Below, in pieces: positions 1,772 through 40,251 of a stretch of DNA of 41,500 bases (the stretch's first letter is position 1; each line of letters starts with the position of its first letter). Under the pieces are notes generated by a model, which was given only the letters and a program-made list of their open reading frames with translations, made no database searches and had not been told where the DNA came from. Origin of the DNA: a virus; the UHGV virus genome UHGV-0377100; one strand, given 5' to 3'. Position numbers and translations under genes: made by a program.

Positions 1772-2722
1772 ATGGAAGGAGGGCATACGTTGTCAGATAA
1801 ACAGAAAAAGCGTTATTACTGGCTTAAATTGAAAGAAAACTTTTTTGAAGAAGACACAATCGAATGGTTAGAAGAACAACCCAACGGAAAAGAGTACTGC
1901 TTAATATACCTAAAATTATGTTTGAAATCTTTAAAAACTGATGGGGTGTTAGTAAGGAACGTTGGCAGCATGTTAATCCCTTACGATGCCGAGACACTCG
2001 CTAGGGTCACAAATTCCACCGTCGACACTGTAAAAGTTGCGATGGATTTATTTAAGAAAATAGGACTAATACAGTTGCTCGATACTGGTGAAATATATAT
2101 CAATCAACTTAATGAACTAGTTGGATCTGAGACAGAAGCAGCCAAACAAAAACGCTTGCAAAGGTCAAAGGTGGACAATGTCCCTAAATTGTCCTCTGAA
2201 TGTCCTGAAAATGTCGCCCAGAGTATAGAGTTAGAGTATAGAGATAAGAGTATAGAGAAAGATAATAAAGAAGAGCCAAAGAAATCTCCTTGTAAATATT
2301 CTGACGAACATTTACGTCTTGCTCAAAAATTACAAAATAATTTAATCAATGATTTTCCGAGTGAAATGAAAAGAGTGAACATTGAAAAGTGGGCTGACAC
2401 GTTTAGGCTAATCGAAGAACGAGATCAACAAACTATTGCAGCAATTGACTATGTTCTTGATTGGTTACCGACTAATTCATTCTGGTTTGGAAACATTAGA
2501 AGTGCTTCTAAACTAAGAACACAGTTTGAAAAACTAAAATTTGAAATCAAGAATGAAAAAGAACGTGGTCAACAACGAGCGGCTTACCAACGTCAAAACG
2601 TTAGGACTGAAAATTTACCAGAATGGGCAAAAGAACCAAATAATCAGCAAGAAGAAAAGCTATCGCCAGAAGAGCAAGCTGAACTTGATAGACAAATAAA
2701 AGAATACTTGGAGGGAAAATAA
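1772..2722 (+). CDS. Phage replisome organizer (Phage_rep_org_N-type N-terminal domain with a DnaD-like C-terminal part).
   Basis: N-terminus KRYYWLKLKENFFEEDTIEWLEE..GKEYCLIYLKLCLKS is the characteristic replisome-organizer N-domain signature. It is followed by rusA. Confidence 0.7.
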   Translation: MEGGHTLSDKQKKRYYWLKLKENFFEEDTIEWLEEQPNGKEYCLIYLKLCLKSLKTDGVLVRNVGSMLIPYDAETLARVTNSTVDTVKVAMDLFKKIGLIQLLDTGEIYINQLNELVGSETEAAKQKRLQRSKVDNVPKLSSECPENVAQSIELEYRDKSIEKDNKEEPKKSPCKYSDEHLRLAQKLQNNLINDFPSEMKRVNIEKWADTFRLIEERDQQTIAAIDYVLDWLPTNSFWFGNIRSASKLRTQFEKLKFEIKNEKERGQQRAAYQRQNVRTENLPEWAKEPNNQQEEKLSPEEQAELDRQIKEYLEGK

Positions 2723-3129
2723 TGCGAATTATCCTACCAATTGAACCAAAGCCACAAAGTCGCCCGAGGTTTGCAAGGCGTGGGAATTATGTCCAAACCT
2801 ATGAAGATAGCGCTATGAGAGCCTATAAACAAAAGGTAAAAGCGTATCTACGAAAGACAAAACCAGAATTGATTGAAAAAGGGGCTATTTTTACGCATAT
2901 TACGTTTTACATCGCTGCCCCTAAATCTCTATTAAGTTCTAAAAAGAAACGCTTAGAAGTGGAATTATAGTGGAAATATTGCGATAAGAAACCTGACTTG
3001 GATAATTATTTCAAAGCAGTCACTGATGCTGCCGAAGGTATTTTATATAAAAACGATGTTTGTCAAAAGTTGTACAGTATACGACCACGAACAGAACTAG
3101 AAATTACAAGTTTGGAGGAACAAGTGTAG
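2722..3129 (+). pseudogene. rusA: RusA Holliday-junction resolvase interrupted by an in-frame amber TAG at 2968-2970. The catalytic KPDLDN motif lies downstream of the stop.
   Basis: N-terminus MRIILPIEPKPQSRPRF is a RusA signature. The same frame continues after the TAG as WKYCDKKPDLDNYFKAVTDAAEGILYKNDV... to TAG at 3127-3129. Uninterrupted length would be 135 aa, the normal RusA size. Confidence 0.65.
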
Positions 3130-3286
3130 TGGGTAAAACGGGTAAACAGATCAAAGAGAATTATTCGGTTAGAAAGCGAGTAAAGAAGATGCTTAAATTT
3201 AAAGAATTTAATATTCAATTATTCGACGTTCACATTTATATAAAAAGGCTAAGTAGTTTTAAAACCAACAAAAAATAGTATAAAAA

Positions 3287-3312
3287 AACTAACTAGTTTC
3301 CGCTAGCTAGTT
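3287..3312. repeat. Hairpin H1: 10-bp stem with one mismatch and loop TTTCCG, preceded by an A7 run (a U-run on the minus strand).
   Basis: AACTAACTAG-TTTCCG-CTAGCTAGTT. Confidence 0.6.
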
Positions 3313-3416
3313 ATAGATACATTTTCATCTCAGATAGAGACAATTAATAATACATTACTATGAAATTTAAGGCAACAAAAAAAGCCAGCTGACCACTAGC
3401 TGACTTATGTGGTAGA

Positions 3417-3440
3417 AACAACTGTTTTCCGCCAGTTGTT
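3417..3440. repeat. Hairpin H1b: perfect 8-bp stem, loop TTTTCCGC.
   Basis: AACAACTG-TTTTCCGC-CAGTTGTT. Confidence 0.55.
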
Positions 3441-3819
3441 CTTTAGGTGTGAGTTAGCACTTTCCCCAAATAAAGTGCTATTAAAAAGCCGATTAAAAAT
3501 CGACAATAAATCTCTTGCAGAGACGTGTACTACTATTAACTGTTTACCAGAAGTTAATGTAGAAAAGGAGGAAATTTATTTCATAAATAAAATCCCCAAG
3601 AAAGTTAAAGTGATTATACCATTGAAAAATAGATTTGAAAATACTTTCTATGCCAAAAATATTTATTAGATGGAAAATAGCAAATGAATAAAGATGATGT
3701 GAAAGATGACGAATGGAAGATTGTAAAATATTGTAGAATTATTATTGTTTTCTTTATAGTCAACCAATAATTTGTTGACTACAAACATGTATGAGTGATG
3801 AATATTTTGATAAATAAAT

Positions 3820-3845
3820 AGCCAGTCGGTTTCCGCCGACTGGCT
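3820..3845. repeat. Hairpin H2: perfect 10-bp stem, loop TTTCCG.
   Basis: AGCCAGTCGG-TTTCCG-CCGACTGGCT, preceded by an A-rich tract. Confidence 0.65.
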
Positions 3846-3954
3846 GAGAAGTGAATAGCTATTGGAATAGTATTCTTAGTATAATTTATATCATATAGAG
3901 TCGCTGATGAGCAAAGGATAAGCATTACTTATATATATTTGGATAAATAAAAAA

Positions 3955-3980
3955 AGCTACTTAGTTTCCGCTAAGCAACT
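3955..3980. repeat. Hairpin H3: 10-bp stem with two mismatches, loop TTTCCG, preceded by an A7 run.
   Basis: AGCTACTTAG-TTTCCG-CTAAGCAACT. Confidence 0.55.
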
Positions 3981-4036
3981 CTTAAATGATGATATGTTTA
4001 TTATAAATTATTATACCACAAAAGGAGCGATTTCAC

Positions 4037-4453
4037 TTGATTAAATTGCTAAGAGAAGTAGATTTTCGACAAACAAAAGCGAATGCCAGAAATGTGTTGA
4101 AGAACTTTAGACGTTTAGAGCGAATAGCTGGTCGCTCTTTGATAGATTTAAAATCACCAATTATTACAGATATGCCTAAAAGCCAAAGTCACGGGAATAA
4201 AGCAGAAGATTCGCTAGTACAATTAGCAGATGCAGAAGCAGAAAGAGACGCAATTTTATCTGCGCTTATGGCATTGAGCCTAACTAGCAGACAAATTTTG
4301 CATTATAGTTTCTGTGTGCAGGATCATTACTCTAATTACAAGATAGCTAGGGAAGTTGGATATTCCGAAAGAAGTATTCAACGCATGAAATCAGAAGCTT
4401 TAATTGAATTTGCTGAAGCTTATCGAAATGGAAAAATAATTGCCTATAAATAA
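4037..4453 (+). CDS. arpU: ArpU/RinA-family phage late-gene transcriptional activator.
   Basis: 138 aa. N-terminus TKANARNVLKNFRRLERIAG and C-terminal sigma-region-4-like HTH (YSERSIQRMKSEALIEF) are typical of the ArpU family. Placed upstream of the packaging genes. Confidence 0.7.
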   Translation: MIKLLREVDFRQTKANARNVLKNFRRLERIAGRSLIDLKSPIITDMPKSQSHGNKAEDSLVQLADAEAERDAILSALMALSLTSRQILHYSFCVQDHYSNYKIAREVGYSERSIQRMKSEALIEFAEAYRNGKIIAYK

Positions 4454-4457
4454 AATT

Positions 4458-4486
4458 TTGGCGGTTTTTTGGCGGAAAGTTGGCGG
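4458..4486 (+). promoter_or_regulatory. Three direct TTGGCGG repeats spaced exactly 11 bp apart, immediately downstream of the arpU stop.
   Basis: TTGGCGG at 4458, 4469 and 4480, each followed by a T/A tract. The one-helical-turn phasing suggests a protein-binding array. Confidence 0.5.
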
Positions 4487-4518: not shown

Positions 4519-4592
4519 TATCGAAAGTCAAAGAAATGGACACATTACACAACGCTTTCTGGTTTAGTCACCGTTTGATTTGACTTTCGATA
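4519..4592. repeat. 14-bp perfect inverted repeat (TATCGAAAGTCAAA / TTTGACTTTCGATA) separated by 46 bp.
   Basis: Arms at 4519-4532 and 4579-4592. The motif ATATCGAAA also recurs upstream of terS. Confidence 0.5.
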
Positions 4593-6382: not shown

Positions 6383-6410
6383 TAATGAATAATATTTTGT
6401 TTTTTTATAT

Positions 6411-6483
6411 CGGCGTGTAGCTAAATAGGTGATAGCGATTGATTTTTAATCAAGTACATGCAGGTTCGACTCCTGTCACGCCA
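6411..6483 (+). tRNA. tRNA-like gene, anticodon TTT (Lys), 73 nt, no encoded CCA.
   Basis: Manual fold: acceptor stem 6 of 7 pairs (C1 and A72 unpaired); U8; D-stem GCTA/TAGC with a GG-containing loop; anticodon stem 4 pairs plus an A-G closing mismatch; loop TTTTTAA with U33 and A37; 5-nt variable loop; T-stem GCAGG/CCTGT; T-loop TTCGACT. Confidence 0.4.
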
Positions 6484-6789
6484 ATAAGTGGCAAAACCAC
6501 TTAAATAAATTAGGAAACGTCAATAGATGTTTCTATCCTTCACGAGGAGGCATTCGCTTGTAGGATGTCTCTTTTTATATGCAAAAATACTTATAATTAA
6601 ATCATCAGAAATACATGATAGATTATAAGGAAACATAAATATCAAATTTGTAAAGCATTATATACTAAAAAGAGAATTATATATGATCACAAGTGGCACT
6701 CTAAAAGTAGAAGAAATAAAAAAAAGTAACACTATGAAAAGTACTCAACCTAAGGTAAAATAAAACAAAGATACTTTGGGGGGGTATAT

Positions 6790-7539: not shown

Positions 7540-8343
7540 ATGGCTAGAAAAAGAGATCCACGTCGTGACCAGGCTAAAGAAATTTGGTTAAAGTCAAACG
7601 GCAAAAAGGTTCTTAAAGAATTAGCTAATGAACTAAATGTTTCGGATTCTCAAATAAGGAAATGGAAATCTATAGATAAATGGGCTGATGAATTAAAAGG
7701 TAATGTTACCAATTCAAAAAGTAACGTTACCAATAAAGGTGGAGCGCCGCCTGGGAACAAAAATGCTATAGGTAACAAAGGAAATAAAACTGCCTCACCG
7801 CCAAAAAGAAATAAGAATGCGGTAAAAACAGGCGAATATGAAACAATATTTGCCGATATGTTATCTGACGAAGAAAAGGACATCTATTCTACAATGAATG
7901 ATGATCCTTTTTTTATTTTGGAGGAAGAAATAAGAATCCTAAAAATTCGTCAATATAGAATGCTTAAACGCATCAAAGATGCAGAGGTTGACTTAAACGA
8001 TGAAGAAGTTGAACGTTTGCAGCAGCTTCGGAAAGTCAAAGAGCCATCGGTGATTGATGGAAAAATGGTCACTGTCAAGAGAGAAGTTTTAAAAGATGTG
8101 CAAGTAACTCGTAAAACATTTAGAAAACTAGATGACATTTTGGCTATTGAGGAAGCATTGACAAGAATTAGCAATCAGTTAACAAAGGCTATTAAGCAAC
8201 AGAATGCCTTGCTAGCAAATGATGCCAAATTACAATTATTGAAGGTTCAAACTGAAAAAGTTAAAGCTAGTTTAGATGCTACAAATGGAGACATGGATAT
8301 GCCAGTTTTCATCGATGATATATCAGGTGATGAATATGAGTAA
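7540..8343 (+). CDS. terS: Terminase small subunit with an N-terminal HTH.
   Basis: MARKRDPRRDQAKEIWLKSNGKKVLKELANELNVSDSQIRKWK is a TerS-type HTH. Gly/Asn/Lys-rich linker. Overlaps terL by 8 nt. Confidence 0.7.
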   Translation: MARKRDPRRDQAKEIWLKSNGKKVLKELANELNVSDSQIRKWKSIDKWADELKGNVTNSKSNVTNKGGAPPGNKNAIGNKGNKTASPPKRNKNAVKTGEYETIFADMLSDEEKDIYSTMNDDPFFILEEEIRILKIRQYRMLKRIKDAEVDLNDEEVERLQQLRKVKEPSVIDGKMVTVKREVLKDVQVTRKTFRKLDDILAIEEALTRISNQLTKAIKQQNALLANDAKLQLLKVQTEKVKASLDATNGDMDMPVFIDDISGDEYE

Positions 8344-40065: not shown

Positions 40066-40251
40066 ATGGCTTATACAATAGAACAAGAAAGCTGGATACT
40101 CAACCAAATCAAAAAAGAGCGGAAACAGCTACAAGACGACCGAGCAGCACTTAGAAAGTCAGAGCAACTAACAGAAGGAAAAGCCTATCAAATTGAAAAA
40201 GAACTCGAATTTTTAAGATACTTAGAGATTCAAAATAGAATGCATATTTAA
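40066..40251 (+). CDS. Hypothetical small coiled-coil protein.
   Basis: 61 aa with an RBS. Confidence 0.35.
   Translation: MAYTIEQESWILNQIKKERKQLQDDRAALRKSEQLTEGKAYQIEKELEFLRYLEIQNRMHI

Follow-up and report, generated by a model that had tools for sequence, protein, structure and literature searches.

A predicted tandem array of minus-strand small RNAs with a common C-GGAA-A hairpin loop upstream of arpU in an Enterococcus faecalis temperate phage

Hairpins in the rusA-arpU gap and the strand on which they fold

Why does the ~0.9-kb gap between rusA and arpU in an Enterococcus faecalis temperate phage carry several hairpins with a single common loop, and from which strand are they made? The first-pass annotation of the 41.5-kb stretch of DNA analysed here (the window) described four hairpins with a TTTCCG loop, and all four are found where it placed them, within 3287-3983. 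TTTCCG occurs 11 times on the plus strand of the window, and four of these copies (3297, 3426, 3830 and 3965) each lie in the middle of a hairpin loop. Base composition predicts 0.075 copies in 694 nt, which gives four copies a Poisson probability of ~1e-6. The 8-mer GTTTCCGC occurs four times, three of them inside the hairpin region, compared with 0.39 occurrences expected from shuffles. At the other 19 TTTCCG/CGGAAA occurrences in the window, none is flanked by a stem of more than 4 bp (0/19). A search for the loop together with a stem across the window confines TTTCCG-capped hairpins to 3287-3983; within the phage sequence, these hairpins do not occur at random frequency.

The loop was originally read as TTTCCG on the plus strand, and this placement is not supported. 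The 35 distinct hairpins contain 35 G.U pairs and only 4 A.C pairs when read on the minus strand, which identifies the folded molecule as a minus-strand RNA. H1 and H3 both include G.U pairs that become A.C mismatches on the plus strand (Table 1), and the G.U pairs, U-tracts and extended -10 promoters fit the minus strand only. On this strand, the loop reads G(CGGAAA)C or G(GCGGAAAA)C. It is best written C-GGAA-A, a GNRA-type GGAA tetraloop between C and A.

A function of the duplex DNA, as a replication origin, a packaging signal, a cruciform or a set of binding sites for ArpU or the replisome organizer, is extremely improbable. The region does lie downstream of the replisome organizer gene, and TGGCGGAAA is common to H1b and the second ArpU box. 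However, the G.U/A.C asymmetry indicates that pairing is selected in an RNA of one strand rather than in duplex DNA, the U-tracts and promoters are strand-specific, and the modules are gained, lost and reshuffled among close relatives. Binding by ArpU was rejected as a candidate, as the same loop is kept in phages with four different Ltr boxes (TTGGCGG, TTGTAGGG, TATACCC and ATGTTCAC). An Ltr operator comprises three direct 7-nt repeats, and the hairpins have at most one partial copy; the three TTGGCGG boxes for ArpU are found at 4458-4486, downstream of arpU. None of the roles suggested at first, as an origin, a packaging element or a target of ArpU, is supported.

The terminator-like appearance of the hairpins on the minus strand, which was also pointed out at first, holds to different degrees. 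Between 3287 and 3983, five to six minus-strand terminator-like sites are found, compared with 0.4 expected. H1, H3 and the hairpin at 3406-3382 form a G+C-containing stem-loop followed by a U-tract, as in an intrinsic terminator; the tail of H2 is weaker, and H1b, which lacks a U-tract, is no terminator. The AGCTGAC-N4-AGCTGAC sequence at 3381-3398 is present, but the two copies are the arms of the 3406-3382 terminator hairpin.

Predicted small RNA units and their relation to Ref1C

These features suggest that the gap holds a tandem array of about four minus-strand small RNA genes, which we consider probable together with the antisense gate on arpU described below. Each gene would be transcribed from a sigma-A extended -10 promoter of its own and end at a separate intrinsic terminator, and the units point against the early and late genes of the phage. 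The first-pass annotation noted no minus-strand gene nearby; the predicted small RNAs would themselves be such genes, and a set of small antisense RNAs, one of the options that it listed, is the reading favoured by the evidence. An extended -10 element (TGnTAnnnT) is located upstream of every unit, both in the window and in its relatives. H1, H2 and H3 would serve as the terminator stem-loops of three RNAs of 60-70 nt, while H1b would be an internal stem-loop of a multi-hairpin RNA, the 3' half of which would adopt the three-hairpin architecture of Ref1C (Rfam RF02845).

Table 1. Features of the rusA-arpU gap and its flank; all RNA ends are predicted from the sequence. R1 is a covariance model.
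Feature	Coordinates	Strand	Basis or remark
arpU, late-gene activator	4037..4453	+	TIGR01637, 133.7 bits; downstream of RNA cluster, on the other strand
Small RNA 1 extended -10 promoter, TGGTATAAT	4010..4018	-	sequence; conserved in all arpU-anchored loci read
Small RNA 1, ~59 nt: single-stranded 5' part CAUAUCAUCAUUUA and terminator H3	3945..4003	-	fold -13.6 kcal/mol, z -3.4
H3 terminator hairpin, 13 pairs (three G.U), loop CGGAAA, then U7	3952..3983	-	
Small RNA 2 extended -10, TGATATAAA	3885..3893	-	
Small RNA 2, ~69 nt: 5' hairpin, then H2 with tail AUUUAUUUAU	3810..3878	-	fold z -5.5
H2, 10-bp hairpin, loop CGGAAA	3820..3845	-	
Inverted repeat TAGTCAAC-N9-GTTGACTA	3757..3781	-	without U-tract
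Long-RNA promoter: TTTTCA, 17-nt spacer, TG-n-TATAAT	3613..3641	-	best promoter match of the region, 10/12 with TG
Long structured RNA, ~230 nt, seven hairpins	3376..3606	-	fold; covariation; predicted ends
Long-RNA hairpin A	3567-3597	-	
Long-RNA hairpin B, degenerate loop UCUGGUAAAC	3530-3562	-	
Long-RNA hairpin C	3510-3524	-	
Long-RNA hairpin D	3483-3504	-	
Long-RNA hairpin E	3455-3480	-	
H1b, internal hairpin of long RNA, loop GCGGAAAA	3414..3443	-	without U-tract
Terminator F of long RNA, Ref1C type, loop AGUGGUC, then U7	3382..3406	-	
Small RNA 5 promoter: TTGCCT, 17-nt spacer, TG-n-TATTAT	3347..3375	-	
Small RNA 5, ~60 nt: 5' hairpin and terminator H1	3281..3340	-	fold; R1 24.0 bits; predicted ends
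H1 terminator hairpin, 10 pairs (one G.U), loop CGGAAA, then U7	3287..3312	-	

A distance of 5 nt separates the promoter of small RNA 1 from the complement of the Shine-Dalgarno sequence of arpU (4020-4026), and the start codon of arpU (4037) is overlapped by the upstream part of this promoter; the same promoter layout is found beside RinA-type and sigma70_r4-type regulators. Small RNA 1 has an R1 score of 20.6 bits, and its 5' part is conserved in one relative, L051, despite a different stem. Small RNA 2 is a degenerate Ref1C-like unit (Rfam Ref1C 39.1 bits, E 5e-4, at 3881-3784; R1 24.5 bits), and its transcript possibly extends as far as 3755. The inverted repeat that had been flagged at 3758-3780 does exist and is conserved. 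In the alignment it falls on the terminator position of the H2-containing Ref1C-type unit, with the loop motif and U-tract lost, and the stem of the repeat corresponds to the AGTCAACC/GGTTGGCT terminator found in L008-type RNAs. We interpret it from the alignment as a terminator-position hairpin of the H2 unit that has decayed; one relative has lost it through an 89-nt deletion.

The 3' 107 nt of the long RNA form a Ref1C-like unit (R1 66.5 bits), and a homologous RNA is present in L009-type and phiFL1B-type phages. By sequence and fold, the H1b unit is a divergent member of the Ref1C family, as is, more weakly, the H2 unit. The Rfam model matches the H1b unit at 3480-3374 with 40.6 bits (E 2e-4); this score and that of the H2 unit are far below the gathering score of 90 bits, whereas a relative from an Enterococcus faecium phage-like element (L085) reaches 93.7 bits. 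The minimum-free-energy fold of 3376-3482 on the minus strand consists of exactly three hairpins that align to positions 1-131 of the Ref1C model, and all three helices are supported by covariation in relatives. Both Ref1C loops, GGCGGAAAAC in the middle hairpin and AGUGGUC in the terminator, are found in the H1b unit, while the H2 unit has the loop GGCGGAAAC and a decayed terminator loop. The extended -10 promoter, the tandem sRNA neighbours and the genus Enterococcus are also common to Ref1C and the window copies. In contrast, Ref1C as described is a core-chromosome gene, while the copies in the window are phage-borne and adjoin a late-activator gene; for H1 and H3, the capped hairpin is the sole feature in common with Ref1C.

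The Ref1C sRNA of E. faecalis has been mapped experimentally, by northern blot, 5'tagRACE and 3'RACE (PMC3074167), and appears as sRNA_103 in the dRNA-seq of E. faecalis V583 (PMC7724050 supplement). It is for the chromosomal V583 copy only that a discrete small transcript has been demonstrated (PMC3074167; PMC7724050 supplement). The chromosomal gene, in the V583 locus at 2,405,700-2,406,300, is located outside any prophage and, according to the supplement of the paper, adjoins an sRNA pair with a BsrC-like match. No paper on the function of Ref1C, on sRNAs of phages beside arpU or on the CGGAAA loop emerged from our literature search, and the KhpB Grad-seq paper held no usable information on these RNAs. 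A scan of genome contigs for Ref1C with an overly strict pattern matched E. phoeniculicola and Ca. E. leclercqii only, and not E. faecalis. At the other loci with CGGAAA terminators, an Rfam scan at gathering level returned no known family.

Two readings would place a protein or peptide in the gap. That the annotated 86-aa ORF at 3409-3669 on the plus strand is a real gene, with the hairpins incidental, deserves hardly any credence. The ORF is annotated in SEsuP-1 and matches phrog_35744 from end to end, but this family is of no known function and, we assume, was built from near-identical phage annotations. The ORF has no Pfam match, and covarying RNA hairpins of the opposite strand occupy the same stretch. 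H1b sits on a 38-nt indel (3414-3451) that is missing from phiFL1B-type phages; its length, which is not a multiple of three, cuts the ORF there, and the corresponding strand of these phages has no annotation at this place. The public annotation of the gap as hypothetical proteins is probably wrong. It is also very unlikely that the small RNAs are antitoxins of a type I toxin-antitoxin system directed against a small hydrophobic peptide encoded in the gap. Modules of the rli28/BsrG/RatA type are located beside arpU in related phages, a faint fstAT match is obtained (E = 6), and the BsrC-like neighbour of chromosomal Ref1C points the same way. Nevertheless, none of the eight ORFs of 20-86 aa combines a ribosome-binding site with a clear transmembrane segment, and the Rfam toxin and antitoxin families give no meaningful score. 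Among relatives, a 28-aa plus-strand ORF is hit by a frameshift and by the 89-nt deletion, which also takes out the start of a 40-aa minus-strand ORF.

Covariation and loop constancy among relatives

Across relatives, three hairpins show compensatory changes in 16 of 27 base pairs, with 95% of cells paired. These pairing and covariation values were reached in none of 500 shuffles, and controls slid along the sequence gave 29-45% pairing. The version of H1 in L008-type phages carries a compensatory change from G.U to C-G. The same loop caps 35 distinct stems, and the initial proposal that structure is selected together with a conserved loop is borne out. The stems had been described as unrelated in sequence, which does not hold throughout: H1 and H3 have a common (C/T)TAG beside the loop, and hairpin B of other phages is a relative of H1b.

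Of 80 arpU-anchored loci, 74 have one or more hairpins with this loop upstream of arpU. The covariance model R1 places the four units of the window at ranks 1, 2, 3 and 5, each of them on the minus strand, and 49 of its 51 matches in 28 arpU-anchored loci lie upstream of arpU on the opposite strand. Other loops upstream of arpU recur on three stems at most, and these three are nearly the same. In some arpU phages, hairpins with the C-GGAA-A loop are missing or variant loops are present, e.g. AAAAAA or GCGAAAAA. That GGCGGAAAAC and AGTGGTC do not vary in alignment A2 is partly by construction, as these were search patterns, and the same holds for TAGCGGAAACTA in the third scan. Within the long RNA, the window combines a degenerate hairpin B loop with the extra H1b, while phiFL1B-type phages have a canonical B and no H1b.

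We consider the C-GGAA-A cap, as part of the explanation favoured here as a whole, to be probably an ancestral and selected feature of the hairpin module, the stems of which would have drifted through compensatory changes. The cap could act as a fast-folding element, as a site of kissing contacts or as the site of a common host factor. The first of these options could stand by itself if the hairpins were ordinary portable terminators that spread with small accessory genes and kept a GNRA-type cap for fast and stable folding, with nothing reading the loop. H1 and H3 are textbook terminators, and H1-type terminators occur on RNAs with unrelated bodies. A CGGAAA-loop terminator also follows an ordinary coding-strand gene in a Mammaliicoccus phage, and in other phages the terminator nearest to arpU has plain GNRA tetraloops (GCAA, GGAA, GAAA and GCGA) on covarying stems. 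Yet H1b and all copies of hairpin B of the Ref1C type are internal and have no U-tract, and the loop is used by none of the ~30 other terminator-like hairpins in the window. Selection for stability alone predicts a mixture of stable loops and not an identical 6-8 nt with fixed C and A on 35 stems, and we regard this explanation as rather unlikely.

Position before late-activator genes and proposed role

Nine of 12 representative units directly precede a late-activator gene (ArpU, RinA or sigma-70 region 4) and are encoded on the strand opposite to it. The role of ArpU has been described in phiFL2A, and transcription of ltr genes, arpU among them, is reported to come last in a repressor-controlled early operon of relatives (PMC3753634). 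The array would therefore be antisense to a leader of ~0.9 kb that is crossed by early transcripts. arpU is the presumed object of control. The first promoter of the array would abut the arpU ribosome-binding site, and the RNAs together with the opposing RNA polymerases may reduce or postpone read-through into arpU. In lysogens, this would leave the late genes unexpressed, and after induction it would impose a threshold. Between H3 and arpU, a scan for promoters detected none on the plus strand. Limitation of early read-through into arpU by antisense RNA and opposing transcription is, in our interpretation, the most likely role.

The orientation and position of the predicted RNAs relative to arpU fit cis-antisense regulation of the kind known for lambda OOP and paQ. 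OOP RNA is antisense to cII, and the paQ transcript is antisense to the late activator Q. Like these, the predicted RNAs would be short opposite-strand transcripts with their own terminator, placed to lower a gene of a developmental switch; however, OOP and paQ overlap the coding sequence of their targets, whereas the RNAs of the window would overlap only the untranslated arpU leader, several in tandem. In the Anti-Q (RF00388) or prgQ-prgX system of E. faecalis pCF10, an antisense RNA and interference between convergent promoters gate a downstream operon. The host genus is in common with the window, while no sequence or structure match is found and, unlike in that system, no plus-strand attenuator terminator was detected in the gap. 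The Anti-Q family is listed for V583 plasmids. Like morons, the units are self-contained combinations of promoter, body and terminator that are placed between functional modules and point against their neighbours, and their number and order vary among close relatives; in contrast to morons, their cargo is RNA instead of protein and they share one conserved hairpin cap. Lambda boxB, which is bound by N, also combines a short stem with a constant purine-rich GNRA-like loop, but three of the four window hairpins (H1, H3 and, more weakly, H2) are themselves terminators, and no boxA-like partner, N-like protein or antitermination context came to light in an analysis not aimed at these features.

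A purely cis mechanism does not account for all observations. The loops of a cis-antisense pair are complementary whatever their sequence, and the constancy of the loop across many units and chromosomal Ref1C is therefore left unexplained. The loop also does not contain the YUNR U-turn motif typical of antisense kissing loops. It is possible, though doubtful, that prophage RNAs made in the lysogen act in trans and that the constant C-GGAA-A and AGUGGUC loops are docking sites for one host or phage factor, an RNA-binding protein or a conserved RNA; chromosomal Ref1C would then use the same partner. Consistent with this, a single loop is found on 35 unrelated stems, on internal hairpins and terminators alike, and it is kept in phages with different late regulators as well as in the core-genome sRNA Ref1C. 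The difference between the window and phiFL1B-type phages resembles a rule of one canonical loop per long RNA, and some of the mini-RNAs keep single-stranded 5' parts while their stems differ, which is seed-like behaviour. Against a partner in trans, no complementary site above chance exists elsewhere in the window (BLAST with short words, run with the region against the remainder of the window, yielded chance-level matches only), no link to the Ltr DNA box is seen, and no RNA-binding protein is encoded nearby. Two candidates were rejected. The additional GTTTCCGC at 40119 on the minus strand is located opposite plus-strand ORFs, with no sign of a minus-strand transcript, and the phage tRNA varies in type (Lys, Asn, Gln, Trp or Asp) or is absent. 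The loops contain GGA, as in the protein sponge RNAs of the CsrB/RsmZ type; to our knowledge, CsrA is absent from enterococci.

The antisense gate and a reader of the loop could be combined. The C-GGAA-A hairpin and the AGUGGUC terminator would then form the recognition module of an unrecognised class of regulatory RNAs, represented by Ref1C in the Enterococcus core genome and carried by many temperate phages, in which it would act as an antisense gate before an ArpU, RinA or sigma-70 region 4 gene, with a dedicated factor reading the loop. We put this forward as a speculative proposal that is unlikely to be correct in full.

Since 2011, Ref1C has been known from E. faecalis as an orphan sRNA. 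The family would gain dozens of phage-borne members, a structure supported by covariation, two invariant loops and a recurrent position before late-activator genes, and with these a testable hypothesis on how temperate phages of Gram-positive bacteria prevent late-gene expression until it is due. Strains of E. faecalis harbour several interacting prophages, and antisense modules that these have in common could therefore mediate interference between them. If the proposal of a dedicated loop reader is true, the early-to-late switch and possibly the cross-talk of co-resident prophages would be controlled by RNA.

Capped hairpins on the minus strand

A gap of about 0.9 kb separates the replication module from arpU, a late-activator gene, and the genes around it all lie on the + strand. 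Enterococcus phage SEsuP-1 shares 99% identity with the region, and phiFL1B (genus Phifelvirus) shares 93%. The four hairpins with a TTTCCG loop described here by the first-pass annotation were confirmed at 3287–3312 (H1), 3417–3440 (H1b), 3820–3845 (H2) and 3955–3980 (H3). TTTCCG occurs 11 times on the + strand of the window, four of them in the hairpin region and each in the middle of a hairpin, and none of the remaining TTTCCG or CGGAAA occurrences is flanked by a stem of more than 4 bp, which bears out the claim that these hairpins are not random. In addition, GTTTCCGC is found four times versus 0.39 expected (three of the four in the hairpin region), and no CGGAAA loop is present in the ~30 other terminator-like hairpins of the window. 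Together, these observations show a genuine pattern rather than a chance one.

In 3287–3983, a consensus scan picked out five to six minus-strand sites that resemble terminators (0.4 expected), and no such site on the + strand. Folded as minus-strand RNA, H3 has 13 stem pairs, three of them G.U, and H1 has 10, one of them G.U; on the + strand each of these G.U pairs becomes an A.C mismatch. Across 35 distinct hairpins with the loop from all sources, 35 G.U pairs fit the CGGAAA strand versus 4 on the other, which shows that pairing is selected in RNA made from the minus strand and argues against a + strand TTTCCG loop. The loop should thus be written G[CGGAAA]C for H1, H2 and H3 and G[GCGGAAAA]C for H1b. 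The strand asymmetry and strand-specific signals also rule out an element acting at the DNA level, such as the proposed origin or packaging signal, or a cruciform.

Predicted RNA units of the array

Each hairpin is preceded by a minus-strand extended -10 promoter 40–70 nt upstream. Four RNA units are thereby predicted, with all transcript ends inferred from sequence, in a region said to have no minus-strand gene nearby. Strand, promoters and terminators favor one option of the first-pass annotation, a set of small antisense RNAs.

Features of the array and neighboring genes
Feature	Position	Strand	Remark
Replisome organizer	1772–2722	+	
RusA	2722–3129	+	
49-aa ORF	end at 3278	+	
RNA 5	about 3340–3281	-	terminates at H1
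TTGCCT-17-TGTATTAT	3375–3347	-	promoter, RNA 5
Long RNA	about 3606–3376	-	seven hairpins including H1b; ends at AGCTGAC-repeat hairpin
TTTTCA-17-TGGTATAAT	3641–3613	-	promoter, long RNA
RNA 2	about 3878–3810	-	terminates at H2
Extended -10 TGATATAAA	3893–3885	-	promoter, RNA 2
RNA 1	about 4003–3945	-	terminates at H3
Extended -10 TGGTATAAT	4018–4010	-	promoter, RNA 1
ArpU	4037–4453	+	TIGR01637, 133.7 bits
tRNA-Lys	6410–6485	+	
Small terminase	7540–8343	+	

The hairpin at 3504–3483 is terminator-like in the window. Most relatives have an interrupted U-tract there, and in phiFL1B types and in L009 (L-numbers denote loci of related phages and relatives) the homologous RNA continues past the equivalent hairpin; 3606–3376 is therefore treated as one RNA. 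Two repeats recorded earlier are present, with altered meaning: AGCTGAC-N4-AGCTGAC is a repeat but constitutes the two arms of a terminator of the type found in Ref1C (Rfam RF02845), an E. faecalis sRNA, and AGTCAAC-N9-GTTGACT aligns with the terminator position of the H2 unit. The latter has the stem of the AGTCAACC/GGTTGGCT terminators found in L008-type RNAs, but its loop motif and U-tract are lost. An 89-nt deletion (window 3707–3795) in one aligned relative, probably L073, removes this inverted repeat (3758–3780), most of a 28-aa + strand ORF and the start of a 40-aa minus-strand ORF, which indicates that the segment is dispensable.

A type I toxin-antitoxin system was rejected, as no credible toxin ORF was found in the gap. 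The 86-aa ORF at 3409–3669 (+), annotated as a hypothetical protein in SEsuP-1 (phrog_35744), runs opposite the structured RNA. It matches no informative family, and a 38-nt indel breaks its frame in phiFL1B-type relatives, so the annotation is probably spurious. Further upstream, the RusA frame contains an in-frame TAG (2968–2970; GAG in SEsuP-1): the gene may be a pseudogene, the stop may be suppressed, or the sequence may be in error.

Relation to Ref1C and conservation in relatives

In a permissive Rfam scan, Ref1C matches the minus strand at 3480–3374 (40.6 bits, E 2e-4) and 3881–3784 (39.1 bits), both below its gathering score of 90. The Ref1C consensus carries the cap GGCGGAAAAC on its middle hairpin and AGUGGUC on its terminator, and the H1b unit has both. 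Ref1C was mapped in E. faecalis V583 by 5'tagRACE, 3'RACE and northern blot and was found in 25 of 25 genomes examined (PMC3074167); by dRNA-seq it is sRNA_103 (2,405,737/2,405,869–2,405,996), with sRNA_104 directly next (PMC7724050 supplement). We found no function reported for it in the literature. On the V583 chromosome (2,405,737–2,406,269), sRNA_103 has two start sites and forms a tandem pair with sRNA_104, itself antisense to a BsrC-like match in Rfam, making the site another small-RNA cluster (PMC7724050 supplement).

Among 80 IMG/VR loci gathered by an ArpU anchor, and hence chosen independently of the hairpins, 74 carry one or more hairpins with the CGGAAA cap in the 1.2 kb before arpU; these hairpins are in every case on the opposite strand, and nine different stems are represented. 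Any other loop upstream of arpU in these loci is shared by at most three stems, which are nearly identical. A motif scan with both Ref1C loops added 62 loci (15 distinct sequences). One of these sequences, L085, scores 93.7 bits on the Rfam model, above the threshold; its DNA is identical in two 40–58-kb E. faecium plasmid-collection records classed as non-mobilizable. Minimal two-hairpin versions are present in two Enterococcus species genomes.

An alignment of 18 Ref1C-like RNAs supports all three helices, with 95% of cells paired and both-side changes in 16 of 27 pairs. These values were matched by none of 500 shuffles, and slid controls reached 29–45% pairing. Loop invariance in this alignment arises partly by construction, as the loops were the search pattern; stem variation does not. 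The covariance model built from it (R1) ranked the four units 1st, 2nd, 3rd and 5th in the window (66.5, 24.5, 24.0 and 20.6 bits, all minus strand), and 49 of its 51 matches on 28 arpU-anchored loci lie upstream of arpU on the opposite strand. R1 also gives 22.9 bits to a three-hairpin stretch at 6484–6574 (+) following the tRNA-Lys(UUU), a slot taken by Asn, Gln, Trp or Asp tRNAs in related phages.

A third scan (TAGCGGAAACTA plus U-tract) brought in another 25 distinct terminators; in many cases an extended -10 box and a short conserved 5' segment precede the terminator. Another mini-sRNA family (L150, L165, L167, L190, L220, L229) combines the conserved 5' segment (G)AUAUAGUCACU with an extended -10 promoter and a CGGAAA-capped terminator with a covarying stem. 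In Mammaliicoccus phage phi6228 (L245, 2505–2548), a CTAG[CGGAAA]CTAG terminator on the coding strand follows an ordinary gene close to the lysis module, which indicates that the capped terminator is not limited to Enterococcus or to the arpU position.

The elements are very probably Ref1C-type sRNA genes in antisense orientation. The hairpins themselves are of a known type, namely intrinsic terminators and structured sRNAs from an Rfam family already described; we found no description in the literature of phage-borne Ref1C-like RNAs, their placement before ltr (late-activator) genes, or the conserved cap.

The late regulator and the constant loop

The array is located in front of the late activator. 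A distance of 5 nt separates the RNA 1 promoter from the Shine-Dalgarno complement of arpU, and the upstream portion of this promoter overlaps the start codon of the gene. Nine of 12 representative Ref1C-like units adjoin a late regulator divergently (ArpU proper, a distant ArpU-like protein, a sigma-70 region 4 protein, or a RinA-family protein in E. phoeniculicola), and in all nine the extended -10 box is a few bases from the regulator's ribosome-binding site. In phiFL2A, late transcription was shown to depend on ArpU (Quiles-Puchalt et al., PMC3753634).

Just after arpU, three direct TTGGCGG repeats (4458–4464, 4469–4475 and 4480–4486; 11-bp period) agree with the 7-nt boxes published for Ltr. 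In relatives that use other regulators, TTGTAGGG, TATACCC or ATGTTCAC takes their place while the hairpin loop stays the same, which rules out the suggested binding of ArpU to the hairpins as an operator. The boxes are followed in every relative read by a conserved (T/G)GTCGAAAG motif (ATATCGAAAG near 4520–4529 in the window), which we take to mark the late transcript start. Downstream of arpU in L051, 4320–4629 matches Rfam rli28 (147.7 bits) and RatA (50.2 bits), both above thresholds, and BsrG (50 bits) just under its threshold of 55; this module is type I toxin-antitoxin-like.

One reading of C-GGAA-A is a GNRA tetraloop set on a C.A mismatch, to which the 8-nt form adds a G.A pair. A purely structural cap fits this reading and the sRNAs nearest the regulator in L009, L008, L011, L071, L085, L101 and L124, whose terminators have covarying stems and plain tetraloops that vary only within GNRA (GCAA, GGAA, GAAA, GCGA), but it leaves unexplained why the same 6–8 nt are found on 35 stems and also on internal hairpins. 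Nor does a cis-antisense role account for the constancy, since a sense loop and its antisense counterpart pair for any sequence. A shared partner that reads the loop is therefore a live alternative, although a search in the phage found none. The window has a degenerate hairpin B loop (UCUGGUAAAC) and an extra canonical H1b on the 38-nt indel (3414–3451), whereas phiFL1B-type phages lack H1b and have the canonical GCGGAAAA in hairpin B (compare L002, L080); these two architectures hint that each long RNA needs one canonical loop.

ltr genes such as arpU are reported to come last in the repressor-controlled early operon, and no + strand promoter was detected by the promoter scan in the interval from H3 to arpU, so early transcripts en route to arpU would have to cross the array head-on. 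Tentatively, and with the odds against it, the constitutive antisense RNAs and opposing polymerases may damp or delay read-through into arpU, which would keep late genes silent in lysogens and impose a threshold once the phage is induced. For such gating, the closest precedents are OOP and paQ of lambda and, on E. faecalis plasmids, the Anti-Q/prgQ switch. There is a moderate chance that a more specific RNA-based control of the late switch is hidden here.
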